In this document: in pieces, positions 1,081-56,878 of the stretch
How the letters are laid out: the number at the start of each line of letters is the position of its first letter
Position numbering within the stretch: the stretch's first letter is position 1
Origin: a virus
Strand: one strand, 5' to 3'
IMG/VR virus record: IMGVR_UViG_3300020176_000011
Span: 16,085-80,084 of that record
Length of the DNA: 64,000 nucleotides
Made by a program: the position numbers and the translations under genes
Notes under the pieces: generated by a model
Told to the model about the DNA's origin: nothing
The model's input: the letters and a program-made list of their open reading frames with translations, nothing else
The model's database searches: none

Positions 1081-1094
1081 GATGTTCTCCTGGG

Positions 1095-4573: not shown

Positions 4574-4574
4574 C

Positions 4575-5788: not shown

Positions 5789-5798
5789 ATCTTACTCC

Positions 5799-34443: not shown

Positions 34444-34467
34444 GTGTGGCAAAAATGACACACTCAG

Positions 34468-34497
34468 GGCCTGTGGCAGAAATGTCACAGGCCTTTT
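34468..34497 (+). terminator. Terminator after the primase-helicase (overlaps a motif B copy)
   Basis: GGCCTGTGGCA-GAAA-TGTCACAGGCC-TTTT. Confidence 0.75.
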
Positions 34498-34943
34498 GCT
34501 TGAACCGTTTTGGTTCAACTGAAATCCTCAAAATTTTCCCTAGTGAGTTTCGACCCTATCAAACTCCCTGGGTCCGTGACCCTAGAAAAAGTATACCCTC
34601 CTTCCTGAGCCTTAGTTTTATTGTAGGTCAGCCTTAGTATTGGTCGCCCTTCAAAGTCGCGTTTCATGTCGATTATTGTTGTCTCAATATATCCAAGGTG
34701 TATTGTCTCCCTATGTTCACTTCTTACTTTCCTCTCGCTACTTCCTCCCAGGGCCTCGCGGGGCCTGTGGGAGAGGTGCGTCCGGATTTTGGGATGCGGA
34801 ACATGGTCGGCGCTGCCAAATTTGGCAGCGCCGTCCACTGCCAAATTGGCAGTGCGGACGGCACGCATGGTGCGGCCGGTACCGCTCACGTCCACTGCCA
34901 AATTGGCAGCGGGCAAGGCAACGCAAACGGAAAGGCTAATCAA

Positions 34944-35690
34944 ATGACTGCCACCACGCAGGAAGCGGGCAAGGTCAACGCGAGCAACGTGACCCTTAAC
35001 CCGGTCAAGGTCTACAGCGACGAGCAAGAGGTTTCGTTCCGCGCGGCCGACGCCGCTGCCAATTTGGCAGCGAACGGCGCTCCCATCGCTTTCGTGGCGG
35101 CGCTGCTCGTCGCGGACAATTACGCAAGCGGCGTCATCTTGGAGCCGCGCGGCAAAGACCCGGTCCGGGTCGCGCGGCTCGCCAAGGCCAAGGAAGCCTT
35201 TGGCAATGAGCGGACGCCGTTCCGGTTCTGGGCCACGGCGCTGGCCTATCGCATCAAGGCCAGCACGGACGTCGAAACGGCCGTTTCGATGGCCACGAAA
35301 GACGACAAGGGCAAGCCCATCAAGACGGTAGAGGCCCAAGTCGCCCGCGCGACCGGCCTTCTGGTCCGCATGATGGCCTCGCGCGGCTATCACACCATGC
35401 ACGGCCTGTCCATCGGCCTTGGCCTGTCCAAAGACCCGGCCGACGGCAAGGGCAAGGGCAAGGGCAAGGCCGATAACTCGCCCAAGTCGGGCGAGGGGGA
35501 AGGCGCGGCGGACGGCGGCAAGGTCAAGGTCGCGGACGCGGCGGCGGACGTGCGGACGGCGCTGATCTGTGAAGCCCTCAAGGCTGGCGGTTTCTCGCCC
35601 GAACAGCACGCCCTCATCGCGGCGGCGGTTCTGGCTGCCAAGCCGGCGGATGTGACGGCCGACGCGGAACCGGAAAAGGTCGCGGCCTAA
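34944..35690 (+). CDS. Hypothetical 248-aa Ala-rich protein (candidate pre-early gene)
   Basis: AAAGG RBS; high-GC codon bias; GKGKGKGK linker; followed by a 35-bp palindrome. Confidence 0.75.
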   Translation: MTATTQEAGKVNASNVTLNPVKVYSDEQEVSFRAADAAANLAANGAPIAFVAALLVADNYASGVILEPRGKDPVRVARLAKAKEAFGNERTPFRFWATALAYRIKASTDVETAVSMATKDDKGKPIKTVEAQVARATGLLVRMMASRGYHTMHGLSIGLGLSKDPADGKGKGKGKADNSPKSGEGEGAADGGKVKVADAAADVRTALICEALKAGGFSPEQHALIAAAVLAAKPADVTADAEPEKVAA

Positions 35691-35785
35691 CGCGGCACGG
35701 CAAGCCCACTGCCAAATTGGCAGTGGGCTTGCCCCTCGCATAATCGCCCGGCAATCCGGCCGGACGATTATCAGAGGGAAACGCT

Positions 35786-35950
35786 ATGGACGCGATGACG
35801 GTTTTATTCGGGCTTCTGGCCCTGTCCATCCTATTCCTGCCGGTTTGCTTCTGGCTCGATAGCCGGGCGAGCCGGTCGCGGCGACAAATGCGCGCCCATC
35901 GTGCCCGCCAGCGTCGCGCGGCTGCCTTCTACCGGCGGGTCTGGTCATGA
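35786..35950 (+). CDS. 54-aa single-TM peptide with Arg-rich tail (below the ORF-track size cutoff)
   Basis: GAGGG RBS; MDAMTVLFGLLALSILFLPVCFWLDSRASRSRRQMR... Confidence 0.6.
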   Translation: MDAMTVLFGLLALSILFLPVCFWLDSRASRSRRQMRAHRARQRRAAAFYRRVWS

Positions 35951-36105
35951 GCCGGGAAAGGCGCTTCTACAGCGACCTTTGCCGGACGTTCCTCGCCTAT
36001 TGTCGCGAGGCCCGGAAAGTCGCGCCCGATGACGTGGACTTGCTCAAGGTCCATCAATCGAGGCTGGCCAAAGCCCGGTCAAACCGGAACCGGGCCACCG
36101 CCTGA
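35947..36105 (+). CDS. 52-aa basic peptide (below the ORF-track size cutoff)
   Basis: ATGA overlap with the previous stop; MSRERRFYSDLCRTFLAYCREAR... Confidence 0.55.
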   Translation: MSRERRFYSDLCRTFLAYCREARKVAPDDVDLLKVHQSRLAKARSNRNRATA

Positions 36106-36113
36106 CCCAGGAT

Positions 36114-36229
36114 CTGGCCCACGGGCCAGGGCCTGCGCCCGGATCGGGCGCAGGCGCGTCTATGTGTCATTTCTGCAACAGTCCCCAGGCGCAGGCCCTG
36201 GCCCAGGGACTGTTGCAGAAATGTCACAT
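36114..36229. repeat. Cluster of interlocking inverted repeats
   Basis: Hairpins at 36114-36129 and 36131-36155; a 24-bp-arm inverted repeat at 36162-36229 whose loop is complementary to 36123-36139. Confidence 0.85.
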
Positions 36230-36275
36230 TATTGGACCCGGCCTCTCCGGGTTTCGAAACTTTTGGAGGTGAATT

Positions 36276-36788
36276 ATGGCTAGGCCCAAATTCAGGCGTG
36301 GTAAATCCCGACAGGTCCCCGCCATACCCGTCTACAAGCCCCTCCGGAGGCCCGCACAGCTGCAAGAGGACCGTCTGGCTCCTGTGGTGGCCGACGGCAT
36401 CCACAGGCCTCTCAGCGAGGCCGGAATGGGCACTGGCGGCGGTGAATGGGGCTTCCATGCCGCGAACGGTCGGAGGCCCAAGCCGATCCGCCATCTGATG
36501 GCCTATGAGGATCAGGCCCGGCGTGAGCTTCAGCTGATCGAGCTGGAAGGCTGGATCAGGGATTGTCTGATCACGTCGGTCGAACCGGGCATGGGTCGCG
36601 AGCTGCCCCACGTTCGGATTTACCATCAGGGTGCCGTCGTGGGTCGTCGCCCGCGTGTGTTCCCCGAGCGGGAGGTCCGTAGGGCCAAGCCCGAGGTCGC
36701 CAAGGTGGCACCGGTCCGGAGGCAGCCCCGCGTGCTGCGGGCCATCGCCAGGGATGTGACCATGGGCGGGACCGTGTACTCGATCTGA
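36276..36788 (+). CDS. Hypothetical Arg-rich protein
   Basis: GGAGGT RBS, ATG start. Confidence 0.6.
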   Translation: MARPKFRRGKSRQVPAIPVYKPLRRPAQLQEDRLAPVVADGIHRPLSEAGMGTGGGEWGFHAANGRRPKPIRHLMAYEDQARRELQLIELEGWIRDCLITSVEPGMGRELPHVRIYHQGAVVGRRPRVFPEREVRRAKPEVAKVAPVRRQPRVLRAIARDVTMGGTVYSI

Positions 36789-37441
36789 GTCCCATGGTAG
36801 GGCTGTGGGCGCAGGCCCTGGCCCGACCAACACAACATCTAGTGAGCGGGCCGTATAAAACTTTTCTTACTTGAACACGTAAGAAAAACAGAGGGGTATA
36901 CACATTAAATGTGGGGTTATGTGGTAAAAATGTCACAGTACCCAAAAACTATTTTCTATACGTATTAAGTTAAAAAAGTTTTATACAGTCCGCGCCACCA
37001 CCATTCATGGTGTGTTGCGCAAATGTCACGCCATATCTGGTGACAGCGGACCAAGCGCCTTTTGAAATTGTTGTCGCTCACGTAGCGCATCTTCCAGCAC
37101 TCGGCTCGACCGAGTGCTGAAACATGCACTATAGGTGTGTCTTTCTCGATCTGGAGGTCGTCTCGAACAACTTGCTGGCCTACTGCCAAATTGGCAGTAA
37201 CGCTCCAGCGACCCACTAGGTATAGAGATAGGACAGCAACACTGACCAATTCGGGCCAGTGCCTACCGCTGGGCCAAATGGCCCTGAACCACTGCCAATT
37301 TGGCAGTAAAGCCAAGCGGCTGGCACCGGCCCACGGATACGGCCACGGCCACGAAGCTGAGACAAATGCTGGGTGTAAACGTCGCCAACACCCCGGATTT
37401 GGAACCGACCCGGCGACAACAGCAGACGAAAGGAACCGACT

Positions 37442-37678
37442 ATGGCTCAGATCAACCGAGTGAACCTCGTGGGGATTTCCCGCACGATCCCGTGGACCAA
37501 TTCCAAGGGCACGCCTCTCCCGAGGGTCGGCGGCGAGGTCATCAGCCTGTACGAGAACCTGACCGAGGAACAGGCCCTGATCCGGTGCGAAGAGCTGAAC
37601 AGGGAGCATCGTTCGACCGATTTCACGGCGACGATCATCCCCCAGGTCGAGTACCCCTCGTACTACTACACCAACTGA
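37442..37678 (+). CDS. Hypothetical early protein
   Basis: AAAGGA RBS; phage-like codon usage. Confidence 0.65.
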   Translation: MAQINRVNLVGISRTIPWTNSKGTPLPRVGGEVISLYENLTEEQALIRCEELNREHRSTDFTATIIPQVEYPSYYYTN

Positions 37679-37824
37679 TGAGCAGGACCGACTCCAACAC
37701 CGAGAGCGCAAGCTGAAGCTGCGAAACCTCCGTGTCCAAACTCAGGATGTGAAGCCTGCGTCAAAAGCAGACTACACATTCATGCGTCGCGACGAATTCT
37801 TCAACCCCGACAATTGAGGCACCC

Positions 37825-39382
37825 ATGTTGACCCTCAACCCGAAACAGCTGCGTCGTGCCCGCGACGGCGCTGCTGCCAAATTGGCAGTAGCTCAACTGG
37901 CCCTCACAAACGCTGAAAAGCGGCTGGCCATTTCCAAGTCCGCCTCGGCTCGTGAGGAATACGACGAGGCCAACCGACAGGTGATCGCCGCGACCACCGT
38001 CAAGCGGCTGATCGAAATCGATGCGCGCTCTTAGCAGCATCGCCCTCGCCATCATCGCACCCTTCATTGGGTGGGATGCTGCCATCTACTGGCATGATCT
38101 CGTCTTCAGCTACACAGGCCATGGAGTGTATGCTGAGCTGATGACGTTCTTCGCCATCATCGCCATGCTGGCGACCTTCGTGGTCGCTCAGTGCAGGTTG
38201 TGGAAACCGGAACTGCATCGGTTCTTAAACCCGACCTAATTCTCTTTCCCGAGTTGTCGTAATTCCCGGTCCTGCGCCGCCCTCAAAAGCCACAGACTAC
38301 TGGGTATAGTCGGCCAGCGGAAAGAGATACGCCCACACCTCGCACAACCTAGACCTCCGTGGTGCCTATCCACAGGTCACACATCATCGTGCTTGGTGTG
38401 GGCGTACTTTATTTGGAGGTAATCATGTCCCATTACGAGCGTCACATTCGCCGGATGGACACTTGGCGTCTTTGTGCTGAGCATGTCTACTATGTGGACC
38501 TTGTTCGCCGTGATCGTCGTGTATTCGGCATGATGGACCATCTCAGCAGCGCACGGGCTGCAGCCTGTTGGCGTGAAATCGTTCGTCGTTCAAACGGAGG
38601 CTTGTCATGAAGACCGATTTGTATTTCGAGGTCCACATCACCCTCGATCCGATCATGCCCGAGTCCGAGATGGGCATTCTTCTGCGCTCGCTTACGGTCC
38701 ATCACGGGTTCCGTGTGGCCAAGTTCGTGATGAACGAACAGGACAGCTTCCTGACCACGCGTGGCACCGATTACGACGATGTCGTGCGTCGGACGAAGAA
38801 CATGATCGAGAGCCTTCGTCTGTTCAACTTCCCGATCCGGCGCTACAAGCTGGAGAACACGATCCTGGACACCAAGGCCACGAACACCGATCCGCTCGGG
38901 TGCCTGACGTCCAGTATGCCCGTCGGCGGCAACTGATGCGCCAGATCGCGGACGATCAAAGCCTGGGTCCCTTTAGTAGAGGCGAACACGCTACGATCAC
39001 CGAGGTCTTCAACCAATACAGGCTCTCCACGCGAGGTCGCAAAGCCGCGTGGAAAGTTATCAGCCTCGACTGGTATCTAGGTCGAACAGGCAGGTTCTAC
39101 GCCTATCTTCGGGCGCATGAATTCGGTTCGGCTGAGAAACCCGGCAAATATGTGTGGGTGACAATCACCTACATGAACAACAGTCGTGACTCGATTGCTC
39201 AACCCAACATGGTTGAAGCCACCAAGTATGCGATGAGCAACATCAGCTACAGCGGTGGCAAGGTGCGTCGGGTCGAAATCGAAACCGAGAAGGACAGCAA
39301 ACGTGCTGTATGGGATGCATCATGGCCAGAAGTCGTGGGTACTGGAAGCGCAAGGATAGCAGGCGAGCCCGCCGCATCCTGA
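37825..39382 (+). CDS. Five small hypothetical genes (37825-38034, 38021-38239 membrane, 38425-38610, 38607-38936, 38936-39382)
   Basis: RBSs and coupled start/stop codons. Confidence 0.55.
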
Positions 39383-39714
39383 ACCGTTCGCTCGATGTCA
39401 TCACCCAGATCGGTACTGCCAAATTGGCAGTGCTGATGACGGAAAACATGTCGGGCTCGTCGCTGATCGGCAACCGTCGCGAGTTGAGCCGGATCGACAA
39501 GATGACCCAGGAAATCCTGGCGCGTGATGCCCGTCAACAGCAAGAGCTGGATGATTACTTCGATGCTCTCTACGAGCAGGAAGCTGCCCTTTACAAGGAA
39601 GAGGCAGCTCAAGAATACCGGCAGTACCTGAGCGAACTGCAGGACGATTATGGCGATGAGGTGTGGGACAGTCGCTATGATGAACTCGAATCCCACTATG
39701 ATTGGAACTACTGA
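39322..39714 (+). CDS. Hypothetical protein with highly acidic, Tyr-rich C-terminus (start 39322 or 39436)
   Basis: 19 D/E in the last ~56 aa. Confidence 0.55.
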   Translation: MARSRGYWKRKDSRRARRILNRSLDVITQIGTAKLAVLMTENMSGSSLIGNRRELSRIDKMTQEILARDARQQQELDDYFDALYEQEAALYKEEAAQEYRQYLSELQDDYGDEVWDSRYDELESHYDWNY

Positions 39715-39715
39715 C

Positions 39716-40153
39716 ATGACACGAGACGAACTGGTCAGGGTCCTTGAGACTACCTTGAGCATGGGTGGGCACAATATCGCCCTCCGTGCTGAGGTCGTCC
39801 GACAGATCCTGGAGGTGCTGAAGCTGCCGGTGTTTCCGGCGACGCTCACTCCCGAGCTGAATGATGTGATCAGGAGCGCTCGGGCGAACACCAACTATCG
39901 GCAGAACGAGGGGCTGCATCGGGACATCCTGAAGCACCTGATGCCCAAGCCGCTCACGATGTTCGTGTTCTACGCGACGCAGATGAACAGCTACAACCAG
40001 CCCAACGTGCCGAAAATCTTTCGGCACAAGACCAAGGAAGGTGCCGACAAGAACCGCGACGCTGCGATCAGGTTGTCGCCGGACTGCTACATCAACGTCA
40101 GCGAGGTGATCGAAGTGCCCCGCGACGTCAACGATCCGCCGCTCGGCTCATGA
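39716..40153 (+). CDS. Hypothetical protein, paralog family 1 copy a
   Basis: TMFVFYA...NVSEVIEVP shared with the next two genes. Confidence 0.75.
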   Translation: MTRDELVRVLETTLSMGGHNIALRAEVVRQILEVLKLPVFPATLTPELNDVIRSARANTNYRQNEGLHRDILKHLMPKPLTMFVFYATQMNSYNQPNVPKIFRHKTKEGADKNRDAAIRLSPDCYINVSEVIEVPRDVNDPPLGS

Positions 40154-40584
40154 GCAAGCTGATCGCCAATCTGGACGCCATCATCCAGAGCGCCAAGAAT
40201 GATGGGCGAACGACATCGTTCGTCACCATCGAACTGCTGGAGCAGATTCGGGTGAAGCTGCTCGATCCCACAATGCCGATGGCGATGCCTGTCGAGCTGC
40301 ACGAGCATATCCACACGGCTCGTCGCAATTCGATGACCGACCCGGCGGGTTCGAGGCTTCTGTACAGCACCATTCGTCAGGCTCTGATGCAGCCTGTGAC
40401 GATGTTCATCTACTACGCGACCCTCAAGCACTCGGGTCAGATGAAGATCTACAAATATCTCAAGAAGGAAAGTGCCGAATCGGCTGCACAGTCCTGTCGC
40501 GATGCCACCAACACATGGTCCAACGTGAGCCCTGTGATGGAAGTCCCGTTCGAGAATTCGGACAATCACGTCAACAAGCACTGA
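40150..40584 (+). CDS. Hypothetical protein, paralog family 1 copy b
   Basis: TMFIYYA...NVSPVMEVP. Confidence 0.75.
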   Translation: MSKLIANLDAIIQSAKNDGRTTSFVTIELLEQIRVKLLDPTMPMAMPVELHEHIHTARRNSMTDPAGSRLLYSTIRQALMQPVTMFIYYATLKHSGQMKIYKYLKKESAESAAQSCRDATNTWSNVSPVMEVPFENSDNHVNKH

Positions 40585-40595
40585 GGAACATCATC

Positions 40596-41048
40596 ATGGA
40601 AAAGCGTGAAATCGTCGTCGAACTCGGCCGCAAGATCAAGGATGCCGAATCCCGTGGTCGCTCCGAGCTGAGCATCTGCGTCGAAGGTGCGAAGTCCGGC
40701 CTGAAGCTGCTGTCCGAGCCGACGCTCGGCGTGCTGCCCAAGGTGCCGACGTCCGAGATGCGCCAGGTCATCCGCGAGGCGATGCAGTCCGGCACCAGCA
40801 TGGACATCTACAACGCCATCTACAAGGAGCTGAACAAGCCGAAGCCGATGTGGGCGTGGTACGCCGAGGTCAATCCGACCGGCCGGACGTCGCCGACGTG
40901 GGAAGTGCGGATGTTCCGCTACGACAACAAGGGCGATGCCGAGAGCAACCGCACCGGCGCCATCGGCATCACGCACAGCTATCGCAACGTCAGCCCGCTG
41001 CTGGAAGTCCCCAGCGACGGCAAGGAAGGCCAGAACCAGTACGCGTAG
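40596..41048 (+). CDS. Hypothetical protein, paralog family 1 copy c
   Basis: PMWAWYA...NVSPLLEVP. Confidence 0.75.
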   Translation: MEKREIVVELGRKIKDAESRGRSELSICVEGAKSGLKLLSEPTLGVLPKVPTSEMRQVIREAMQSGTSMDIYNAIYKELNKPKPMWAWYAEVNPTGRTSPTWEVRMFRYDNKGDAESNRTGAIGITHSYRNVSPLLEVPSDGKEGQNQYA

Positions 41049-41075
41049 GGTTCCCATCAACCGAAGGAGATTGTC

Positions 41076-41517
41076 ATGAACCACTTCACTGCTGCGAACG
41101 AAGCGTTCGAGCGGAAGCTCAAGATCACCCGCAAGGGAGGCGACAAGAAGAAGATCGCCGAACTCATCGCGGGCCGAAACGAGTTCGTTCGCAAGTACGC
41201 GGACAGTTTGCGTCTCGCCGACAAGCGTGACGCCGCCGTGCGCATCCTCCAGCAGGACTGCCACCATGTGGCATAGTGGCATGGAAGCCTTCTTCGGCTG
41301 GACCCTCGTGGTCCTGATGTGCATCGCTGGGCTCCACTGGATCTACGAGTTCGTCTGGAAACTCTGGTCGCTCCTCGTCCAGATCTGGTTCTGGTCGGAC
41401 TTCAACAAGACCCAGCAGTACGAGTTCGAGCAGTCGCTGGAGAAGCGCAACAGCTGGTTCTTCATGTGGACCGTCGTGCTGTTCGCGATGGTGTGGATCG
41501 TCAGGAACTTCATCTGA
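41076..41517 (+). CDS. Two small hypothetical genes (41076-41276; about 41281-41517, membrane protein)
   Basis: AAGGAG RBS; hydrophobic Trp-rich segments in the second. Confidence 0.55.
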
Positions 41518-41584
41518 CGCTTCGTTAGACCACAGGGCTACTGCCAAATTGGCAGTAGCCCTGACCTGTAACGAGGAGATCAAC

Positions 41585-42154
41585 ATGAACATGAATATGG
41601 ACGAGCTGATCGCAAACAGCTTCATGGATTTCCATCAGAAGGATTTCCATTATCTCTGCGTGCGTCGGTCGCCGACGATGACAGAGAAGTTCTACTTCTT
41701 CGACGGCGACGTGAGTAAGCTGCCCGAGGTGGTGGCTCCCCACGATCATCGCTACCAGTTTCTGACCAAAGCCGTGCGCGGCACGGTCGAGAACCGGGTC
41801 TACAGCCGCGACTATCTGCCCTATGCGGAGTGCGCGACGTTCCAGCGGTTCTCGTATATGACTCCGCTCAACGGCGGCAACGGTTTCACTTGGGCTGCCG
41901 AAGAGAAGCTCTACCTGCAGAGCAGCGAAAGGTATTGGAATAGGTCGTACTGGATGGCGGCCGACGACATTCACACGATCCAGATCATCGAACCGGGCAC
42001 CATCCTCAAGCTGTATCAGTTCGAGGACGTTGTGCCGATCAACAAACCTACCAGCACCTGGATGCTGGACCGCGAACCGCCGAACCTGTCGGGCCTGTAC
42101 CGCAAGCCCACGCCCGACGAGATCAATGGCTTGCTCAAGAGATTGGAGACGTGA
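41585..42154 (+). CDS. Cupin-fold protein (possible dioxygenase)
   Basis: PHDHRYQFLTKAVRG...IHTI metal-binding cupin pattern; GAGGAG RBS. Confidence 0.6.
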   Translation: MNMNMDELIANSFMDFHQKDFHYLCVRRSPTMTEKFYFFDGDVSKLPEVVAPHDHRYQFLTKAVRGTVENRVYSRDYLPYAECATFQRFSYMTPLNGGNGFTWAAEEKLYLQSSERYWNRSYWMAADDIHTIQIIEPGTILKLYQFEDVVPINKPTSTWMLDREPPNLSGLYRKPTPDEINGLLKRLET

Positions 42155-42155
42155 C

Positions 42156-42404
42156 ATGGACCTCAATCACACCGACATCACCGGCAAGACCGGTCAGGAG
42201 TTCGTCTGCCTCATCGGCAAGACCTACCGTCACAATGCCCGCTCGAAATACTACAAGATCGTGGGCGTGGTGTATCTCGGCGAGATGGACCTGTGGGGCC
42301 TGAGCTATCGCGAGAACAACAGCGAGGTCATGCACGTTCGCAGCCACGTCAACTTCTTCGGCACGCAGGCTGGCAGCGAAGACCTGCGCTTCGAACAGGT
42401 TTGA
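42156..42404 (+). CDS. DUF1653-like SH3-type protein
   Basis: YRH...YKIVGV...HVRS..NF....RF pattern. Confidence 0.55.
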   Translation: MDLNHTDITGKTGQEFVCLIGKTYRHNARSKYYKIVGVVYLGEMDLWGLSYRENNSEVMHVRSHVNFFGTQAGSEDLRFEQV

Positions 42405-42406
42405 GT

Positions 42407-43899
42407 ATGGTGACCCGAGTGGACAACCAGGCCTACATGCAGATGACGCAGGCTCAGCGTGACGCCTATCACGACAAGCGTCGTCGCGAACAGAACGACG
42501 TGGATCGGAAGCGTCTGCTGAAGATCCCGATGTTCTTGACGCGCGAGTTCACCGACGCGCAAGGCCAGGTCCAGTTCCTGATCATCAAGCGGCACGTCAA
42601 CAAGAGCTGCGCTGGACTGTTCACCATTCACCAGAAGATTCCGAGCTTCTGGCAGCATCATTGGGCGCACTATCAAGCGCCCGGTGTACAGGGCAAATAC
42701 GTCGGCTTCTATTTCGAGAAGGGTCACTACTGCGACGAGTACCCACCGACGATCCTCCAGGACCTGCACGACTACGCGCATGGTGACCTGAAGCCGTTGG
42801 AGGACCGCTACGGTGGTCAGTTCGACCAGTCGCGCTTTCAATGGGAGCTGTGAAATGTCGCTCGATGTGTGGCTGATGAAGACGCAGCCGACCGAGGTGT
42901 TCAGTGCGAACATCACGCACAACCTCAACACGATGGCCGAGGAAGCTGGTGTCTACCAGCACCTGTGGCGGCCGGAAGAGATTGGCATCAGCAAAGCGGG
43001 TGACCTCATTCTTCCTCTGACCGAAGCGGTCAAGAAGATGGAGGAGAACCCGGTGCGTTTCCGTAAGCACAACGCACCGAATGGCTGGGGCACCTATGAA
43101 GGGCTGCTCAAGTTCATCAAGAACTATCTGGCCGCCTGCATCGAGCATCCGGACGCTGAGATCGGAGTGTCGCGATGAGTTGGCAACCGATGCACACGGC
43201 TCCCATCGCCAAGGATGACGATGGTGAGCCACAATACATTCTCGCCGCCGACGAAGACGGCGTGGTCGAGAAAGTCTTTTGGGGCGATTGCGCCGAAGGC
43301 ATGGGTGGCGATGATCCCTGCAATACGTGGTGCATCGCCCACAGTCTCAACGACGAGCGCGGTGGTTGGAGTACCCACCTCGCCGTCAAATGGCAACCGC
43401 TTCCGGAGGCGTAAATGAGCATCGCATCTTGGTGGAAAGAGTTCACCAAACCTGATCCTGAGATCGAGATGCAAGTCGCTCGGTATCAGGTCCACAAAGG
43501 CGCGGGCTATCTGATCTCTGCCTACGACCACATGGTTCGCAGCGGTCGTAACATGCGCAACTTCATCGTGTCCGACTGGACGGTGAAGAGCCACACCGAT
43601 GGATACTGGCAAGTTAGCCTGCATTTCATCGGACGCAGGATGATGGAGGGCGACCTGTGAAGTGCCAGTGGGAACCCGCAGACATCTGGTGCGGTCGGGT
43701 CACCAAGTACAGCGACGGTACGCAGGAGAAGTGGATGATCGGCTACGACGCCACCATTCGCGACAGTCGCAAGCACTACTGCCTGATCAGCCTCAACGAC
43801 GGCATGATCATGCTCAAGAATTCGACGGCCGAAGAGGTGTGCAAGCATCTGACCGAGGCCAAGCTGGAGCCCGACGAGATCGTCAATAGGAGGAACTGA
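42407..43899 (+). CDS. Five hypothetical genes (42407-42853, 42855-43178, 43175-43414 DUF551-like, 43415-43660, 43657-43899)
   Basis: Coupled ORFs; WQPMHTAP...WQPLP DUF551-like motif; NITHNL...PNGWG motif. Confidence 0.6.
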
Positions 43900-44450
43900 T
43901 GGAAGAACCGTGGTCGATCCGTCTCATTCACGAGACGTTGTGTGAGAGCGTGTTCACCGAACTCAAGCTGGTGATCCCGTTCGAGAAGCGTCCCGACGCT
44001 CCACGCTACGAGTGCTGGATGATGCGCGACACTCTCGCGCCCTACACCTACGGACGCAATCGTGGTGAGCGTACCTATCAGGCCAACGTCATGCCCGATC
44101 TGGTCAAGAAGATCGGCAAGTCGGTTCGTGAAATCCTGGGTGGCGACCGTGAGCCCGAGGGCTGCTTCGCCAACCTGTATCGCGATGCTCACGACCACCT
44201 CGGCTGGCATGCCGACGCCAGCGACATGATCGACCACGAGTACCCGGTCGTCAGCGTCAGCTTCGGCGACCGTCGCCGCATTCAGTTCCGTCCGAACACC
44301 GAGCAGGACAAGGTTACCGAGCTGTGGATGGAGCCCGGCAGCATCACCGTGATGCCCGCTGGCTTCCAGCACACGCATCAGCACCAGATCCCGAAAGAGG
44401 GACGCGTCATCGGCGAGCGCGTCAGTTTGACATATCGCTGGCTCAAGTAG
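43899..44450 (+). CDS. alkB: AlkB-family 2OG-Fe(II) dioxygenase
   Basis: NLYRD..D.LGWHAD (HxD), SVSFG..R, HQHQIPK (distal His), RVSLTYR. Confidence 0.9.
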   Translation: MEEPWSIRLIHETLCESVFTELKLVIPFEKRPDAPRYECWMMRDTLAPYTYGRNRGERTYQANVMPDLVKKIGKSVREILGGDREPEGCFANLYRDAHDHLGWHADASDMIDHEYPVVSVSFGDRRRIQFRPNTEQDKVTELWMEPGSITVMPAGFQHTHQHQIPKEGRVIGERVSLTYRWLK

Positions 44451-44459
44451 GAGACGACA

Positions 44460-45416
44460 ATGGCAATCCGGAAAAACGACATCGGCAAGCGGGTGAAGTT
44501 CATCAGCTCCATCGACAGGACGACGACCAGGTTCGGTCGGCTGATCACCTATGGTGCGGGCCACTCGGCCGTCATGATCGAGAAGGACGGTCTGATGCCC
44601 GCCGAACGGTTCGAGGAACGCTCGCTGGTCGAGACGGCCAAGCTGAACCTCGCCGAAGTTCAGATCACGAAGACCGACATCGGCCAGACCTTCATGTGGA
44701 ACCCGCCCGCCCCGGCGACCTCGTGCAAGGTGCAGCTGATCGAACTGCGCGTCCATCCGTCCGACGAACGCATCACGTCGGCGCTCGTGCAGGCCAACGG
44801 CCGCCAGTTCGTTGTCTGGGCCAAGCACCTCCAGAAGGAAGACGACGCCACCCCGGCGCTGCCAATTTGGCAGGACATCAGCACCGCCCCGAAGGATCGT
44901 CCGATCCTGCTGATCAATGACAAGGGTCATATGTCCACCTGCGAATGGCGGAAGGATATCTATGGCCTCAATTGCTGGCAGATTGCCAGTAGCACCACCT
45001 ACGCTCAGTTCTTCGGAGCCTACATGTGGTCTGAACTCTTGGCACCGCCGCCGAAGCCGAAGCCCAAGTCGCCGCGTGAAGTCGCCGAGGAGAAGCTGCT
45101 CGCCGCCTACAACGACACGATCAATGTCGCGAACAACACGGCCAGCATGATCCGCAAGGCGAAGCAGAACTACATCGCCGCGCAGAACGCCTACTTCGTC
45201 GAGGTCCAGAAGCAGAACGGCAAGCCCGCCAACTGGCTGATCAAGGAAGGCAAGGTCTACCTCATGATCGACTCTCCGTTCAGCCACTTCTCCAGCGAGA
45301 AGCTGGCCGAGTGGGTGGTCAAGGACCCGGCCAAGTATGCGGCTGCCGCCGCCGACCGGATGCTCTGGCTGAGCCAGCAGCGTCACTACGAGCGGTTCAA
45401 GCAGGGCAACCTGTGA
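44460..45416 (+). CDS. Multidomain hypothetical protein (two xxDIG repeats and a DUF551-like domain)
   Basis: IRKNDIGK / ITKTDIGQ; WQDISTAPKD. Confidence 0.6.
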   Translation: MAIRKNDIGKRVKFISSIDRTTTRFGRLITYGAGHSAVMIEKDGLMPAERFEERSLVETAKLNLAEVQITKTDIGQTFMWNPPAPATSCKVQLIELRVHPSDERITSALVQANGRQFVVWAKHLQKEDDATPALPIWQDISTAPKDRPILLINDKGHMSTCEWRKDIYGLNCWQIASSTTYAQFFGAYMWSELLAPPPKPKPKSPREVAEEKLLAAYNDTINVANNTASMIRKAKQNYIAAQNAYFVEVQKQNGKPANWLIKEGKVYLMIDSPFSHFSSEKLAEWVVKDPAKYAAAAADRMLWLSQQRHYERFKQGNL

Positions 45417-45602
45417 TGCTGGTCGCCATGTTCTATATCCGACTCGCAGGGGCCTTGTGCCTCTGCGTGTTGGCCGGTGGGCTGATCGTCAGTGGTCAGC
45501 CCACCCTGGTCGTCTTCGGTGCGCTCTGCATCGCGGCGGCACTCTGCATGGTTCCGAGCCACAAACACACTCGGGACTACCAACCCATCTGAGGTCATCA
45601 TC

Positions 45603-46013
45603 ATGCTCAAGAAATTTCTGATCGGCGCTGCTGCCCTCCTGCTGCTGGGCTGCAACGAAGACGCCAAGGTGGCCGGTGACAACCTCACCAAGGCCGCCGA
45701 CAACTTCGAAATCACGAGACGCATTCTCTTCGTGAACACCATCACCGACAAGTACCTGCTGGAGATCGTCGGCCGGTGCAGTTTCGGACCGTCCGGTAGT
45801 ACGCCGAAAACGGTCAACGTCATCTGTAAGGTCGGTCCGACCGACTACAAGAAGCATTCCATGGTGATGGGCGACAACACCGTCGTCGTCGTGGAACACC
45901 TGAAGGCGACCAATGTCTCGGTCGACTTCTACCGCGTCACGTTCAAGCCGTCCGCCATCATCCCCGACATCGACATCCGAGGACCGGGGCTGGACCAGGA
46001 GAGCAAGAAATGA
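45603..46013 (+). CDS. Lipoprotein
   Basis: MLKKFLIGAAALLLLG-C lipobox; NLTKAADNFEITRRI motif. Confidence 0.75.
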   Translation: MLKKFLIGAAALLLLGCNEDAKVAGDNLTKAADNFEITRRILFVNTITDKYLLEIVGRCSFGPSGSTPKTVNVICKVGPTDYKKHSMVMGDNTVVVVEHLKATNVSVDFYRVTFKPSAIIPDIDIRGPGLDQESKK

Positions 46014-48988
46014 GCACCTACAACGCCGTCAGTATCGCGATCAACAACTTCAGGATCAACGGGAAGAAGCCGAGCGTCTACCTCGACCGAAACTACGAGA
46101 ACCTCGACTTCACCAACTTCGACATGAGCGACAGCAGCGTCGGCGACAGGGCCGTGTTCAGCACCCCGGCCGGTTCGGGTGTGATCGACCTCGGTCGGCC
46201 GTTCGGCTATCGCTTCCTCGTCTTCAAGAAGGTCGACGAGAAGAAGCGTGTCAGCTACCAGATCGTCACCGGCTGCCGTCGCTTCTCGCGCGAGGATGCA
46301 CTGAAGCACCCGAACTGGAACTTCAACACGAAGCAGTACAGGCGTCGGGTTCGCGAAGAAGGTCACTGGGCGAAGCGCGTCGGCATCAAGGAACTGCTGG
46401 CCACCGTCGACCAGCTGGCCAAGTGCCATTGGGGCTACAAGATCCCCCGATGAAGACGATCATCCACGTCAACCGTCAGCTCATTGCCTACAATCGAGCG
46501 ACCGGAGCCGAGCTTCCCGTCTACACCATCAAGCGCGGAAAGCAGACGACCTACGGCTACGGCGTGGAGATCAAAGGCCCGAGCCAGATGGTAGACCCGC
46601 GCCACACGGCACCGTTGCCGTGTGGCGCACGAGCATGGATCGAAACCGAGGCACCAGTCATCATCGAAGGTGCCATGTCCTGGGCCGAGGTCCAGAGGAG
46701 GAAAGATGCCCACGATTTTCCGTCTGCCCGTAAGAACGGTGATGGTACGCGCACAGTGCGAGTGCGGCGGCGAGATAAAGGCGGTTCAGGGCTACGACCT
46801 CCGTCGCCGGAATGAGAAGGCTGAATGGGAGAGCATCTGCCACGGCAAGTGTGGGCAGACCTCCAAGCAGGATCGTGCGTACCCCTACGTCGACTACGAG
46901 CTGATCGACCACGCCGATCCCTTCTATGAAGCTCGACAAGAACAGGAGCAAGCCAATGTCTCTGGAAATTCAATTCCCTAAGTGTGATCGACTGACGACG
47001 CTGGGTAAGCTGAATGCAGGCGATCTGTTCACGCTGACGGATCAGCCGAAGCGTGTGTTGATGGTGGTCAGCCTCAACGGCCGGTTCAACGTCGCAGCTG
47101 GTGATTGGGGTGTTGTCTATCTCGACAGCGGACACTGCACCGTGATGACCACGCAGACCAGCGTTGTTCGTCAGAAGGCTAAGTTGGTGCTGGAATGAGT
47201 CGCCTCAACATCAAGGTGGAACCACCGGTTAAACCTCCGGTTACGATGCTACACGAAGCGAAGAAGGGGAGCGTCTTCTTCTTCAAGACCGCTTACGACC
47301 AGTTCGGACCAGAAGCGGAGCCGTACATGCGTCTCGACCATTCTCCCATCAACAGCTGGGGAGAAGTCGAGAACAACAAGATCGCCTGCGTCGACCTCGG
47401 CGATGGTGGCGTAGTGGTGCGTCATCGCACCACAGAGATCGTTCAGGTCAATGCTGATCTTCTGATCGGCGCAGTTCATGGAGCCGAAAAATGAGCGAGA
47501 AGACGGTCGGGTACTATCTCTCCAGCCTCATCGGCTATCGAGACGACACGGGCTACACAGAAGCCCACGCTATCGCCCGAGTGTGGATGGCGATCAACCC
47601 GAACCTCTTTCTCAGTCTGGCGCTGATCCCGAACCTCGCGCACCAGACCGGCCATGTCGTGCAGCTGAAGAGGCCCGTGTTCGGGCTGCATTCAGCTGCT
47701 ATCGATGCGATGAAAGGTCGTCTCGAAAGCAGTGAAGAAGGTTGGATGGAGTTGTTGAACGGTCACTCGTTCCTCGTCCAGCCGCATCTTCTGAAAGAAT
47801 TGTCGGCTCGTATCCGACAGCACAAAGCGGAGTTGGTCGAATGCAATCCGTATTGTACCCGGTCATAGGCTTCGCCATCGGTTACGCGATCTGCTGGTGG
47901 GCAAGTCGCAAGACTGATCGTCCTCTTTGGCCGAGGTGGTAGCTATGGCTAAGAAGAACTGTCGCAACTGCACGCACTACGGCGTCCCCGAGGGCAAGAT
48001 CGCTCGGGGCGATGCGCTGTATCCGTGCAACTGGAAGATGCCCGACGAGTACATCTTCCCCGACGCCATCGTGGAAACCTACAACAGCCCGGTGGCACGT
48101 CTTTCCGATCCGAAACATCACATGGGCTATCGGACCGGTAACCAAGGGACCTCATGTCCCACATTCAAGGAGAAGGCCAATGCGGCTGATCAAGGTTGAT
48201 CCCATCAAGCGTGTGACCGAACGTGTGACCCACCACGGTCGTCGCTACATCCAGGACCTCGCGGGCCTGATGCAACCGCACAAGTCGGTGCTGGGATACG
48301 ACTACGTTCCGAGCGACCTCCATCAGTACGCGGTCAAACGCTCGGGCAGGATCAGCGCCCAGGTGATCATCGACATGAGCGCACCGGCCAAACTGCCGTC
48401 GTGGCTCTACAAGGGTGTCAGCAGTTTGCCGCCGCTGACGGGTATTGGTCTGGTCGTCGGCTACGACAGCGAGCTGGGAGAGTTCTGCGACTGTCCCCCC
48501 CTTCTGCTCGATCAAGTCGAATTCGCAGTGGAGTGGTGGTAATGCGCACCCGTGCTGAGAGGACCCTCGGGTCCTATCTGGCCAATATCGGCCGAGTCCT
48601 CGATCTTCATCTGCCGCTGTTCAATCGGCACACCGGCAACGCCGTCGTGTTTGAGGGAGAAGTCACCGACATCAAGGGTGACATCTCCTTCCTCTTCAAG
48701 ACGCTGGACGGACAGCTCGTCAAGCTGGGCATGACCCAGGTGCATGAGCATCTGACCAACAAGGACCCGGTGCCCGAGTCACGCGGCGACAAGTTGATGT
48801 CGGGCTTCGTCAACGTCCAGTACAAGGGACCTCGCTCCTCTTACCAGACCAGCATCACTCGCAAGCAGAATGGTATGCCCTTCAAGAGCGAAGAAGAAGC
48901 CATGGCTGCCTGTGTCAATCGTCAGCTCACGATGTTCGGAGATCCGATCTTCCTGTGCAAGCTGACACCAGTGAAGATGTTCCTCTGA
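46010..48988 (+). CDS. Run of about 10 small hypothetical genes (46010-46453, 46450-46815, 46706-46981, 46956-47198, 47195-47494, 47491-47868, 47945-48199, 48180-48542, 48542-48988)
   Basis: Tightly coupled plus-strand ORFs; several with CxxC motifs. Confidence 0.55.
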
Positions 48989-49515
48989 TGTTCGATCTCG
49001 ACAGCGAGGCGGTGATCTTCGCGATCACCCACCACGGCCAACAGAAGCGCCGTGTCAGCAATGAGCCCTATATCTGCCACCCGATCCGAGTGGCTGTGCT
49101 GGCTCAGCAGTTCGTCACCTTCGGCAACAAGGTGATCGTGCAACATGCCGCCCTCTTCCACGATCTGCTGGAAGACACCAAGTGTACGGAGCAGGAACTT
49201 CGTTCACGTTGGGGCGACGTGGTGGCGAATCTCGTGCTTCAACTCACCAACGAGAAGCCGGGTGATCGAGAGGTCAAGGCGCGGTTGGAACGCGAGCGGT
49301 TCATGAACGCCAGCAGGCTCGCCAAGGTGATCAAGCTGTGCGACGTGATCGACAACGCGGGTTCTTTCGGCGACGAGGTCGGCAGCAACTGGTGCCGCCG
49401 TTGGGTCGGCGAGAAGAAACAGCTGATCGAAATCCTGGCGCAAGGCGAAACTGGAGCAGCGTTTGCGATGCTCTACAAGGACGCCAAGTGTGCCATCGAG
49501 AGGATCGACCAGTGA
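48988..49515 (+). CDS. HD-domain small alarmone ((p)ppGpp) hydrolase, SpoT/Mesh1-like
   Basis: HHGQQKRR..EPYICHPIRVA, AALFHDLLEDT, LT, IKLCDVIDN. Confidence 0.85.
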   Translation: MFDLDSEAVIFAITHHGQQKRRVSNEPYICHPIRVAVLAQQFVTFGNKVIVQHAALFHDLLEDTKCTEQELRSRWGDVVANLVLQLTNEKPGDREVKARLERERFMNASRLAKVIKLCDVIDNAGSFGDEVGSNWCRRWVGEKKQLIEILAQGETGAAFAMLYKDAKCAIERIDQ

Positions 49516-51618
49516 ACCGCAGCTGGGCCGACCATCTGTTCGGCCGAAAGCAACCGGAACCGTGGACGGGATTTCCCCTTCCTCCAACCGACATCAAGAC
49601 CTTCCATGACGTCCGGGCACTTGTGCCCGACGTTCTGCCCCCTGCGAGCCCTCGCGCGCAACGGGAAGCCATGTGCATCTTGCGCAATGGCAGCCTCAGC
49701 GAGATGAACATTCACCCGAGCATTGCTGCCAATTTGGCAGCAGTGACGCGAGCCTTCATCATTTGCTACCGAAGCGACCTCCCCGGCTTCGTAGTGGCCC
49801 CGGTCCTCGCCTTCCTGTTGGATCAATGGTGTGTGGAGAACGAATATGGCTTATAGGATGTATCAGGCAGCGATGACACCGCTGTTCAAAGCGCCTGTTG
49901 CGTTGGTGACGACGTCTCGCGTTATCGCCAAGAGCCATGATCAAGCCGAACATTTTCTGAAGCTGCGAGGCTTCGGCGAATATCTCGACAGTCACTACTA
50001 TCCAAAAGTCGTGACGAAGGAAGTCGGACTCGTCTCCACCAGGGTCGAGAGCCGTATCCGGACGCATCGTCGGAACCATATGAAGGGCACCGTCGAACTT
50101 GTCATGGCACTCGGCTACATCGCTGTGAAGGGATGCTTCGCCACAACGGACGAGATCTACTCGCCGAAATTCGGCATCGTCGACGCTTGTCTGTTTGACT
50201 GGCATCAAGCTGGGCTGGTCGACCGTGTGAAAGCTTTGGAGGCCAAGATCCCTGGGTGGACGCTGGCCTATGCAAAGGAGAACCAGTAATGGCAAAGCCA
50301 AAGTATCGGCTGTGGGTGACCGTTCTGCCGAAACGACCCTCACGCTACGACGATGAGTACCCGTTGAACTACGACCTCAACGGATACGTGATCGCCGCCT
50401 GCGAGTCGCATGCTCAAGCGATGATCGACATGCGCAATTTGGGCGAGCGCCTGCGCAAGCCGGATGAGACAACTCCGTGCTACATGAAGAACCGAGTGGT
50501 GCGGGCTACGCCCAAGACACTGTCGCGGTTCCTGATGATACGGGTGGAGCGAGGCAACCCGTGGGTCAGCAGCGGCATGGGCAGCTATCTCGGAGAGTTC
50601 GCCCGGCTGGCGACGGCGGCCAATCTGATCACTCAGCCTCAGCTGGCCGAACTCGTCCATTCCCTCTGCAGCTACGGCTGTCGTGGTCGTCAGCTGATCA
50701 GCTGGATCGAGATGATCGAGGATAACATTCCAGGGCACACGCTCACTTATGCAAAGGAATACTTCCGTGCCAATCCCTTTTGATCACACGCACGAGATGG
50801 ACGGCCAGACGTATGAGTGCGTCTGGCACGTCAGCAAGATGGGTGACGTCTACCTGCACAAGTGCGTCCCTGAGTGTTCAACCGAAGTCGAAGAAGCCCT
50901 CTATCTGGAGGCCTACGACGAACTGCCTCGTTGGCTTGAGGAGATAAACGCCCGTGATTCTTAATCCTGTCTTCGTGACGATGACTGGTCCGCTTCTCAA
51001 GCGCACCATTCGCAAGGGAACCAGCTACGTGTTCTTCCAGCCGCCCGGCGCGTCGGAGGCACTGCGGGTGACCAAATCGTTCTTGGTCGAGTACATCGAC
51101 AGCATGATCAAGGACAAGGAGTGGCTGGTGTTCCGGGTGTTGAACCGGGAGAAAACCACTCATCGCAGTGCCTACGTCGACAAGAAATGGGTGCAGAAGC
51201 CGGTCGTGATCAACCAGTGGACGGTGACGTCCTGTGGAGTGCAGAACCCCGACGACTTCGATTACTGGGACAATTTGTTCCAGACCGAACCGAAGGTGTT
51301 TCAGCTCTATGTTCCCTTCCTGCCGAAAGAACTCATTGCCACGCTCGCCGTGAAGCACGATAGTTTCGGCACAAGCAGACCGATGTTGGAGCTGCTGAAA
51401 GGAATGTGATGCTGAGAAAAGGCCAGTTCAATCGAGCTGTCAGGCCGGATCACTTTCGTCTCGACGAGAGAACGATCAAGTATTTCTCAAAACGAGAACG
51501 CTGCGCGGGTTCGCGCTGCTTTGTAGATACACCTCAAGAGGCGGAAGCCGAGGTGCTGGAGTTCATTCGCAAATACGGGACGATCCCGTTAGGAGAAGAT
51601 AATGCGGCTGCAGGATAA
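49512..51618 (+). CDS. Hypothetical genes (49512-49856; paralog pair 49846-50289 and 50289-50783; about 50770-50964; 50954-51409; 51406-51618)
   Basis: Coupled ORFs; the pair shares IPG.TL.YAKE. Confidence 0.55.
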
Positions 51619-55969: not shown

Positions 55970-55972
55970 GTC

Positions 55973-56878
55973 ATGGGTTTCAAGCCACTGCTCGCAGGCA
56001 ACGTCATCGACCTCAATGGTTTGGATGACCTGATCTTCCCGATGATCGGCTCCTTCAAGATCGACGGCATTCGTGCCCTCGGATTGGACGGGGCACTCAT
56101 GTCCCGTACCAAGACCCTGCTCCCGAACCAGGAGCTGCAGGCAATGTTTGGTCGTCCGGAGTTCGACCGTCTCGACGGAGAAATGGTCGACGGCGATCCG
56201 AACGATCCGCAGGCCATGAACAAGGCCAGTCGGTGCGTGATGAAGGCGTCAGCCTCGGCGGCCAACGCCAAGTGGTACGTGTTCGATCATGTGCCCGACG
56301 ACGGCGACATGACGGCCTTCACCATTCGACTCAAGTTGCTCAAGGACAAGGTCGAAGCTCTCAGCCACCCGCAGATTGTGCTGCTGGATCAGGTGATCCT
56401 GACCAGCCTCGACGATCTGCTGCTGTACGAGAAGACGGCGCTGGAAGCGGGCTATGAAGGTGTGATGATCCGCAAGCCGCTCGGCCACTACAAGTTCGGC
56501 CGCTCGTCGGCAAGGGAACAGATCCTTCTCAAGATGAAGAAGTTCGAGGACGCCGAGGGCACGCTCACCGGCATGACCGAGATGATGCACAACGAGAACG
56601 AGGCGCTCAAGGACAACTTCGGCCGCACGAAACGGTCGTCGTCCAAGGCAGGCAAGGTCCCGGCGGGTGTCATGGGCAATCTCGTCTGTGAAACCGACGA
56701 GAAGGTCGAGTTCGAGATCGGCACCGGCTTCACGGCCGAGGACCGAGCGTGGTTCTGGAAGAACCGAGAGCGTCTGCTCGCTGACCACACTCGCATCAAG
56801 TACAAGCATCAGCCGCATGGTGCGAAAGACAAGCCGCGCTGCCCGGTCTATATCGGCATCCGGAAGGACCCGACGTGA
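55973..56878 (+). CDS. ATP-dependent DNA ligase
   Basis: KIDGIR motif I, LDGEM, VFD, GYEGVMIR, LLKMK, IGTGF, PRCPVY. Confidence 0.93.
   Translation: MGFKPLLAGNVIDLNGLDDLIFPMIGSFKIDGIRALGLDGALMSRTKTLLPNQELQAMFGRPEFDRLDGEMVDGDPNDPQAMNKASRCVMKASASAANAKWYVFDHVPDDGDMTAFTIRLKLLKDKVEALSHPQIVLLDQVILTSLDDLLLYEKTALEAGYEGVMIRKPLGHYKFGRSSAREQILLKMKKFEDAEGTLTGMTEMMHNENEALKDNFGRTKRSSSKAGKVPAGVMGNLVCETDEKVEFEIGTGFTAEDRAWFWKNRERLLADHTRIKYKHQPHGAKDKPRCPVYIGIRKDPT

Follow-up and report, generated by a model that had tools for sequence, protein, structure and literature searches.

The stretch analysed here, referred to below as the window, comprises 64,000 nucleotides corresponding to bases 16085-80084 of the 80,084-bp IMG/VR virus record IMGVR_UViG_3300020176_000011, which is rated 98% complete and linear, and it carries an array of twelve near-identical palindromes spanning 15 kb of the 80-kb genome. 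Scans with PHROG and Pfam profiles identified the virus as a siphovirus, which, judged by its sequence, is a JWF-like siphovirus with an SPO1-type terminase. A minus-strand structural block holds the large terminase (28910-30646), the portal, the major head protein, a tape measure protein of 1863 aa and a J-like tail protein. Genes on the plus strand form a block from 30806 to the contig end that continues at the contig start; it contains a PrimPol/D5 primase-helicase, approximately 16 kb of small orphan genes, rIIA/rIIB, RtcB, DNA ligase, DNA polymerase, SbcCD, ribonucleotide reductase and thymidylate synthase. By terminase, the closest named phages are Achromobacter phages JWF and 2-1 (45%), followed by Pseudoalteromonas phage KB12-38, Caulobacter phage Seuss, Xylophilus phage Lumi and the Acinetobacter EAb13 group, all of which are ~80-kb siphoviruses with SPO1-like terminases. 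A DNA similarity search with 34300-40000 gave no match among named phages, and BLAST detected no similarity between the early proteins and the early regions of JWF, Lumi or Seuss. DNA of this phage was found in salt-marsh metagenomes and a relative, X12, in wastewater.

An earlier note on this DNA had described twelve near-perfect copies of a palindrome, and these were recovered as eleven exact copies of CTGCCAAWTTGGCAG (sites 2 to 12; Table 1) together with one 16-bp variant bearing an extra central base (site 1). At up to two mismatches, 0.12 copies would be expected from shuffled sequence and none of 100 shuffles reached 11, while permitting three mismatches added just two sites versus 1.3 expected, such that a halo of degenerate copies is absent. 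The rest of the record, amounting to 65 kb and including the 16 kb beyond the window, is without any copy, and the note's statement that the motif is confined to ~34.8-49.8 kb therefore holds for the whole record. The two series of gaps that it had listed (25, 57, 161, 653, 1474 and 109, 582, 1542, 2125, 3318, 4867 bp) are correct, and gap size increases with distance from the start of the array (Spearman 0.90, p = 2e-4). Eight of the twelve sites are noncoding, and three or four lie inside open reading frames (ORFs), away from any start; the in-ORF readings given previously, AANLAA in the 248-aa gene, AAKLAV in a 69-aa ORF (37825-38034) and LPIWQ, in frame, in the ORF at 44460-45416, were likewise accurate. 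The long palindromes reported around sites 5 and 10, the latter at 41533-41563, are real and add 10 and 8 paired bases per side, respectively.

Table 1. Palindromic sites and neighbouring features in the window (L125 and X12 are relatives described in the text).
Feature	Coordinates	Strand	Remarks
Site 1	34813..34828	.	16-bp variant CTGCCAAATTTGGCAG in the first-gene leader; its L125 ortholog, likewise a 16-mer, reads CTGCCAACATTGGCAG
Site 2	34838..34852	.	leader; kept in L125 at 8351 with the centre base flipped
Site 3	34895..34909	.	34 nt 5' of the ATG of the 248-aa gene; retained in X12 with centre A>T and altered flanks
Site 4	35056..35070	.	within the 248-aa gene (AANLAA); no counterpart in L125
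Site 5	35709..35723	.	core of a 35-bp perfect palindrome, 35699-35733, 9 nt past the stop of the 248-aa gene
Site 6	37183..37197	.	untranslated leader past the second AT-rich module; three tandem sites here in L125
Site 7	37292..37306	.	leader shared with site 6
Site 8	37874..37888	.	within the 69-aa ORF (AAKLAV); no copy at the orthologous place in L125
Site 9	39416..39430	.	17 nt 5' of an in-frame ATG at 39448; orthologous to L125 12834
Site 10	41541..41555	.	intergenic; central part of a 31-bp palindrome lying 29 nt 5' of a Shine-Dalgarno sequence and ATG at 41585
Site 11	44859..44873	.	within a 318-aa ORF (LPIWQ)
Site 12	49726..49740	.	final site; noncoding, past an HD-domain gene
AT-rich module AT1	34500..34700	+	CTAGTGAG..TATCAAACT..AGAAAAAGTATACC
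AT-rich module AT2	36830..37010	+	paralogue of AT1, followed by a 430-bp untranslated leader
PrimPol/D5-type primase-helicase	31903..34443	+	last gene ahead of the putative repeat
Terminator-like hairpin	~34466-34505		after the primase-helicase stop (34443)
248-aa orphan	34944..35690	+	first gene of the putative repeat
170-aa Arg-rich protein	36276..36788	+	68% identity with L125
78-aa protein	37442..37678	+	first gene past the second site cluster; 88% identity with L125
Putative direct terminal repeat, ~2.3 kb	34545..36900	.	collapsed to a single copy in the contig; placed by synteny

Alignment of 18 fifteen-base sites, drawn from this phage and the closely related L125, showed that the conserved unit is broader than the core, reading C-Y-R-CTGCCAA-W-TTGGCAG-Y-R-G over 21 bp, with information content symmetric out to ±3, A or G and never a pyrimidine at position -1, and T or C at position +1. 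The sole asymmetric position is the centre base, which is A in 8 sites and T in 4 and flips between orthologous sites. Within ±45 bases of these 18 sites, conservation is restricted to positions -3 to +17, and the absence of any conserved position beyond the unit indicates that the 21-mer stands alone and is not a piece of a sigma-type promoter. A sigma-70-type promoter element was considered and rejected, as only 2 of the 12 sites match and no partner hexamer lies at a fixed distance from the 18 sites. These two matches involve site 5, whose right arm also provides a -35-like TTGGCA, 16 nt ahead of CATAAT, and site 12, where the right arm, 17 nt and CATCAT form a promoter-like match. An association with sigma-54 and its enhancer-binding proteins was likewise rejected, since the window contains 35 matches to TGGCAC-N5-TTGC versus 28 expected; the one site-linked match, at 35718, is made by the palindrome extension.

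Several properties of the sites bear on whether they are read as DNA or as RNA. The flanks lengthen the palindrome far beyond chance (52 paired bases versus 7.1 ± 3.3), and when G-U pairs are tolerated the stem extension amounts to 66 on the plus strand and 67 on the minus strand, so that no signal of a transcript strand is present and RNA-specific G-U pairing is not supported. The core is invariant among sites, which leaves no variation in which compensatory change could show. In Lumi, whose palindrome is described below, just two 5-bp arms at a fixed spacing are retained and the 5-nt centre is unpaired and unconserved, an arrangement that fits half-sites one helical turn apart rather than a hairpin. 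The symmetric flanks, the parity of the strands and the Lumi arms together favour recognition of duplex DNA by a symmetric dimer. The proposal in the earlier note that the copies are binding sites for a dimeric protein gains indirect support from the two-fold symmetry that extends to the base classes of the flanks, the strand parity, the free centre and the palindromes that differ by lineage yet occupy orthologous positions.

L125, a contig of 12.9 kb, shares 87% DNA identity with this phage over the primase and structural block (94% for the primase protein) and 65-75% downstream of it. It contains eight exact-core copies, of which three precede the first gene, one follows it, three lie in the second leader and one is orthologous to site 9, and the first of the three sites before the first gene is again a 16-mer. 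The site following the first gene, at 9576, is the ortholog of site 5. L125 lacks equivalents of the ORF-internal copies (35056 and 37874), and its sites lie 23-29 nt ahead of three start codons. In the wastewater relative X12, the arms of site 3 are retained, and the spacer between sites 6 and 7 has been swapped for 22 nt with both sites kept.

When the whole records of more distant relatives were scanned, each lineage was found to carry its own exact palindrome on the same arm. JWF has 10 unique copies of GTTCGTnACGAAC, restricted to its terminal repeat and last 12.5 kb, Lumi has 17 unique copies of TTACT-N5-AGTAA, restricted to the repeat and last 24.6 kb, and Seuss has 5 unique copies of TTTACC-N3-GGTAAA, located in the repeat, at two early genes and at the rIIA start. 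Further IMG/VR relatives carry, 3' of the primase, GTTCAAnTTGAAC (L256, L262, L264, L266 and L273), GTGCAGnnCTGCAC (L257, L270 and L272), TGATTC-N4-GAATCA (L267) or TGTTTGnnCAAACA (L269). As in the present array, spacing widens away from the end, with rho values of 0.77 in JWF, 0.78 in Lumi and 1.0 in Seuss, and most JWF, Seuss and Lumi sites occupy short spacers ahead of early genes. Within the JWF clade, each lineage's own palindrome occupies the orthologous spacers, such as those ahead of the first and the second gene, the palindrome type switches between closely related lineages, and hybrid half-sites such as GTGCAA-G-TTGAAC are seen. This concerted change of many sites from lineage to lineage is the pattern of a protein and site pair that co-evolve, and it argues against a host factor. 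Being a feature of the family, the array is a stronger observation than when first noted. The trait is not universal in the wider group, as no repeated palindrome was found in the first 22 kb of EAb13. The literature on Lumi and TCUP2199 does not mention palindromes, and a literature search with the motif letters returned only unrelated eukaryotic primers. The GTGCAG-type relatives also contain a second palindrome, ACTATC-N-GATAGT, with 3-5 copies within ~500 bp near the inner repeat region (L257 13002-13538; L272 15123-15595).

The same relatives provide a frame for locating the genome end. Their direct terminal repeats measure 1466 bp in JWF (from comparison of its two ends), 2298 bp in Lumi (by PhageTerm; PMC9959647), and 1748 bp in Seuss and 2177 bp in EAb13 (both annotated). 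In all four phages the repeat lies shortly past the primase gene, with two endonuclease genes between them in JWF; it begins 150-530 bp 5' of an orphan gene of 195-265 aa, includes a few more small genes, and ends within a large untranslated AT-rich stretch of up to ~1 kb. The layout of the window matches, with the primase stop and hairpin, AT1, the 248-aa orphan and three small genes, AT2 and the 430-bp leader following in that order, and an untranslated stretch of ~650 bp over the inner repeat boundary. Weak alignments place the true ends of Seuss and JWF at 34542-34551, and a block AAAAG..GTAYAC lies 30-60 nt inward of the ends in all phages compared. From this synteny we infer a terminal repeat of ~2.3 kb, from ~34.55 to ~36.9 kb, that is collapsed in the contig; AT1 is probably its outer edge together with an early promoter region, and AT2 is probably its inner edge and the start of the second site series. 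With the repeat so placed, the first palindrome would lie ~270 bp from the probable genome end, five sites would fall within the repeat and thus be present at both ends of the virion DNA, and the second site series would begin just beyond the inner boundary. The earlier note had proposed that the sites are densest at the end that enters first. Its gradient of density stands, and the probable end is placed only through synteny, with the relatives' repeats falling here and their ends aligning weakly at ~34.54-34.55 kb.

Public sequencing runs were examined as contigs. Contigs of two independent salt-marsh DNA runs (X1 and X10) break at the 30-mer 34565-34594, a weak hint, and word depth in X1 rises to the right of it, from 52.9 to 67.5, which may reflect a repeat edge or a mixture of strains. 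Contigs from RNA libraries span the region evenly and are uninformative on transcripts.

Taken together, our analysis suggests that the twelve palindromes are operators for a phage-encoded dimeric DNA-binding regulator of pre-early and early expression, acting in a stoperator-like manner, a reading to which we assign a probability of roughly 0.5. According to this proposal, the sites would be high-affinity operators on double-stranded DNA for a two-fold symmetric phage protein, with several located in leaders 3' of the two paralogous AT-rich promoter regions and single ones at or near early-gene junctions farther in. The bound protein would shut down or gate pre-early and early transcription, by blocking elongation or by overlapping promoters, and would probably regulate its own gene. 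What is observed comprises the sites, their confinement and symmetry, and their retention or lineage-specific replacement among relatives; we infer that the binder is a protein, that the phage encodes it and that its effect is repressive. Among the functional options offered in the earlier note, namely pull-in, end protection, nucleoprotein loading and roadblocks, a roadblock or operator role appears to fit best, because the sites of relatives lie in short spacers ahead of early genes.

A number of observations weigh against this proposal. Searches of ~55 proteins of the genome against Pfam or PHROGs found no DNA-binding family, though a divergent protein may escape such profiles, and translation in all six frames yielded no match to HTH_3, RHH_1, HTH_17 or ParB_N; for ParB_N, no hit at E <= 1 was obtained in any frame of the 80-kb record, whereas control genomes do score. 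The family of first genes in the JWF clade, F1, folds confidently yet fits no known DNA-binding fold. Relatives' sites lie 1-25 nt ahead of start codons, a location that fits control at the RNA level too, and the right arm of the Seuss palindrome holds the Shine-Dalgarno AGG, 1-17 nt before ATG. The first site is a 16-mer in both this phage and L125, and an additional base between half-sites is awkward for a rigid dimer. A sigma-70-like promoter match overlaps just the 2 sites noted above, and the evidence does not separate repression from activation or from a structural role.

As the binder must be common to this phage and L125, five candidate proteins remain: the 248-aa protein (56-65% identity to L125), a 54-aa membrane protein, the 170-aa Arg-rich protein, the 78-aa protein and a 69-aa coiled-coil protein (50%). 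We regard the 248-aa, 170-aa and 78-aa proteins as candidate trans factors. The earlier note had put forward the 248-aa protein and an Arc-like protein; the former stays a candidate, and the only Arc-like candidate identified, a 52-aa ORF, was rejected as the shared factor, as it is a singleton missing from L125, which shares the motif. The 78-aa protein is the best-conserved early protein, and an atlas search with it gave nothing. In the 248-aa protein, a Gly/Lys-rich linker joins a helical N-terminal part to a short helical C-terminus; the protein has only four close homologues and matched nothing in the PDB or Pfam even at E 10. Its AlphaFold2 (AF2) model had a predicted local distance difference test score (pLDDT) of 39 and was not used, and its leads in the atlas of language-model look-alikes all scored <0.9, including 'Streptomyces phage repressor c' at 0.81, below the meaningful level. 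Where the arm begins, members of the JWF clade share three conserved proteins, F1, F2 and F3. F1 shares the position and the layout of the 248-aa protein, with a helical domain connected through a low-complexity linker to a helical C-terminus, and its model reaches a pLDDT of 76 overall and >90 in the N-terminal domain. Comparison of F1 with solved folds gave no convincing match (best Foldseek E 1.3; VIA Z <=6.6, for the C-terminal hairpin only), and homology between F1 and the 248-aa protein could not be demonstrated (hhalign probability 4.5%).

Alternatively, the element could be an RNA hairpin in early transcripts, serving as a translational operator, a processing site or a stabiliser near ribosome-binding sites and recognised by a phage-specific RNA-binding protein or nuclease. 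Closeness to start codons, the 16-mer first site and the stems that follow stop codons lead us to keep such a role as the main rival, though we consider it unlikely. Twenty-four of the 31 sites of relatives lie within ~25 nt 5' of a start codon or overlap one, and the placement of the Shine-Dalgarno sequence in Seuss and of the L125 sites, noted above, points the same way. The 16-bp variants would replace a 3-nt loop with a 4-nt loop, which a hairpin tolerates, and two sites directly past stop codons extend to stems of 15-17 bp. On the other hand, any element confined to spacers of 20-45 bp is expected near start codons, and three or four sites of this phage are in ORFs, away from starts. The transcribed strand, moreover, shows no excess of G-U over A-C, the outer flank pairs are specific by base class (R...Y) rather than being any Watson-Crick pair, and the Lumi arms would give a mere 5-bp A/U-rich stem with an unpaired centre. 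A role in DNA entry, an idea of the earlier note in which the sites gate or assist transfer or protect the incoming end, strikes us as improbable. In such a T5-like scheme, entry would take two steps: first the repeat and the pre-early genes on it, then the remainder, whose transfer would be driven or licensed by a palindrome-bound protein of pre-early or virion origin. The beginning of the array ~270 bp from the putative end, the fall in site density with distance in four phages, and the T5-like layout, a repeat with few orphan genes followed by an untranslated stretch of ~650 bp here and ~1 kb at most in relatives, would all be in keeping with it. The sites, however, extend inward for 15-25 kb and fall at gene junctions, a placement better suited to gene regulation. 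No protein recognisable as a motor or as an end binder turned up, and nothing indicates which end enters first or that entry is stepwise. A more speculative extension, a long shot in our estimation, is a new kind of cis/trans system common to JWF-like siphoviruses with terminal repeats. Its protein, rapidly re-specifying and of no known DNA-binding fold, might be the product of the orphan gene that opens the repeat; it would read an exact palindrome graded from the entering genome end and so couple stepwise DNA entry to the timing of pre-early and early expression.

The remaining alternatives draw on occurrences of the motif elsewhere, for which 2.9 million viral contigs were searched using the motif itself. 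In unrelated contigs, CTGCCA-N3-TGGCAG forms tandem iteron-like clusters with a spacing of 22-33 bp. In L119 (6600-6760; G002:C1:18609-18755), six tandem copies lie within a 363-aa ORF and encode GSAKLAEG-type repeats; this ORF adjoins a Toprim/DnaB-like helicase gene in an 82.9-kb complete phage (G002), and G001, L067, L072 and L198 contain further tandem clusters. These clusters keep alive, for the first three sites, the reading that clustered sites are replication-origin iterons for an initiator and the neighbouring primase-helicase, with the dispersed copies being secondary. The three sites lie ~70-170 bp 3' of a 260-bp AT-rich stretch that follows the PrimPol/D5 gene, and they are spaced 25 and 57 bp apart. 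Nevertheless, 9 of the 12 sites are dispersed over 15 kb, the sites of relatives are single and precede early genes, and this genome revealed neither a recognisable initiator nor a homologue of the 363-aa protein, so that we think an origin of this kind has little likelihood. As G001 and G002 have no proteins in common with this phage, the shared motif, found by a motif search of so many contigs, is probably convergence, an independent use of one half-site. Finally, a host transcription factor could bind the sites, CTGCCA-N3-TGGCAG being a common bacterial palindrome. Many paired CTGCCA(AAA/TTT)TGGCAG sites with spacings of 21, 31 and 42 bp are present in chromosomes of Longimicrobiales/Gemmatimonadota and Planctomycetota (L135-L254), where they suggest a host transcription-factor regulon with helical phasing, and the 29-bp pairs of viral contigs described below point in the same direction. 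The chromosomal sites, however, mostly have AAA/TTT centres and a paired geometry, unlike the array; relatives on other hosts use different palindromes at the same places, with close lineages switching, and sigma-54 matches are not enriched in the window. We therefore judge a host factor to be highly improbable.

The 29-bp pairs occur in unrelated viral contigs with a GC of 0.37-0.48 (L121 (G005) 300-16000; L122/L123 (G004); L076 (G003); L074, L028, L078 and L083), where CTGCCA-N3-TGGCAG pairs number in the dozens, with a separation of exactly 29 bp and a GGTAGGGA-like spacer that is conserved. The pairs adjoin a sigma-54-like TGGCAC-N5-TTGC promoter in nearly all intergenic regions and look like a phage-wide sigma-54 enhancer or leader module. 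Within the window itself, a second repeated element, TGTGGCA-N5-TGTCACA-like, occurs as three pairs (36160-36230, 34445-34500 and 36915-37035). One of the pairs consists of 24-bp inverted arms between two repeat genes, and the pair past the primase stop resembles an intrinsic terminator, with GGCCTGTG...CACAGGCC followed by TTTT. The early/middle arm (43899-44450, 45492-46013, 48955-49515 and 54770-56878) encodes a 2OG-Fe(II) oxygenase (AlkB-like), a VG64-family protein and an HD-domain protein, and, after rIIA/rIIB, an RtcB RNA ligase adjoining an ATP-dependent DNA ligase.

With respect to lifestyle, no integrase was found above the cut-off in the genome of this phage. The gene that opens the terminal repeat in the JWF clade has homologues on two Burkholderia contigs, one of 4.2 Mb (B. 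pseudomallei) and one of 1.0 Mb (B. cepacia), and several relatives come from isolate-genome records of ~80 kb; on these grounds, some members of the group may persist in cells. Plaques of JWF are turbid and re-inducible (PMC3899368).

The array marks a regulatory layer in a widespread and little-studied group of ~80-kb phages whose hosts include Achromobacter, Burkholderia (from the homologues on its contigs), Xylophilus, Caulobacter and salt-marsh bacteria. With one exact palindrome per lineage on the same arm, the sites could act as a code of immunity or specificity, as in Cluster A mycobacteriophages, and such a code would bear on superinfection exclusion, on the mixing of phage cocktails and on the prediction of genome ends and early regions from sequence. 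As the trans factor eludes all profiles tried, finding it could add a DNA-binding family, and cultured relatives exist in Seuss (on Caulobacter crescentus), Lumi and JWF.

Among known systems, the stoperators of Cluster A mycobacteriophages, bound by gp71 in L5, are asymmetric 13-bp sites that are occupied by a monomer and oriented with transcription (PMC9283540). They lie at promoters and in short intergenic spaces, those of L5 are thought to stop both initiation and elongation, and related Cluster A phages differ in site specificity (PMC9283540; PMC6550527). The array resembles them in consisting of many near-identical short sites in promoter regions or short intergenic spaces, as reflected in its noncoding majority, and differs in that its sites are two-fold symmetric 15-21-mers, free of orientation and confined to the repeat and early arm. 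Stoperator phages, moreover, are temperate, encode an immunity repressor with an N-terminal helix-turn-helix and carry sites genome-wide, whereas here no protein resembling a helix-turn-helix repressor and no integrase was found. The siphovirus phiC31, a temperate actinophage with cohesive ends, has a 17-bp conserved inverted repeat (CIR) scattered through its early region, to which a single phage repressor, c, binds; no sequence or profile similarity was found. KorB of plasmid RK2, a dimeric global regulator, acts at twelve copies of a 13-bp palindrome (OB) dispersed over the replicon. Unlike KorB/OB and ParB/parS, in which KorB belongs to the ParB family, the present genome contains ParB_N in no frame, and the array is polarised from one end. 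T5 has a small number of pre-early genes in its terminal repeat, along with an extensive untranslated region in which repeats and palindromes abound (10.1101/866236). The likeness to its first-step transfer lies, by synteny, in the layout of repeat and untranslated stretch, and the T5 injection stop signal differs in being a local cluster that includes DnaA boxes, not one exact palindrome over 15 kb. The lambda origin has its iterons inside gene O, and the array is similar in placing palindromic iterons beside an AT-rich stretch, a use to which G002 puts the identical motif; it is dissimilar in that 3 of the 12 sites are clustered, outside any initiator gene, and the others are dispersed. Overall, the array differs from stoperators, CIRs and KorB in having no recognisable lysogeny genes or binder, in the symmetry of its sites and in their confinement to one arm of the genome.

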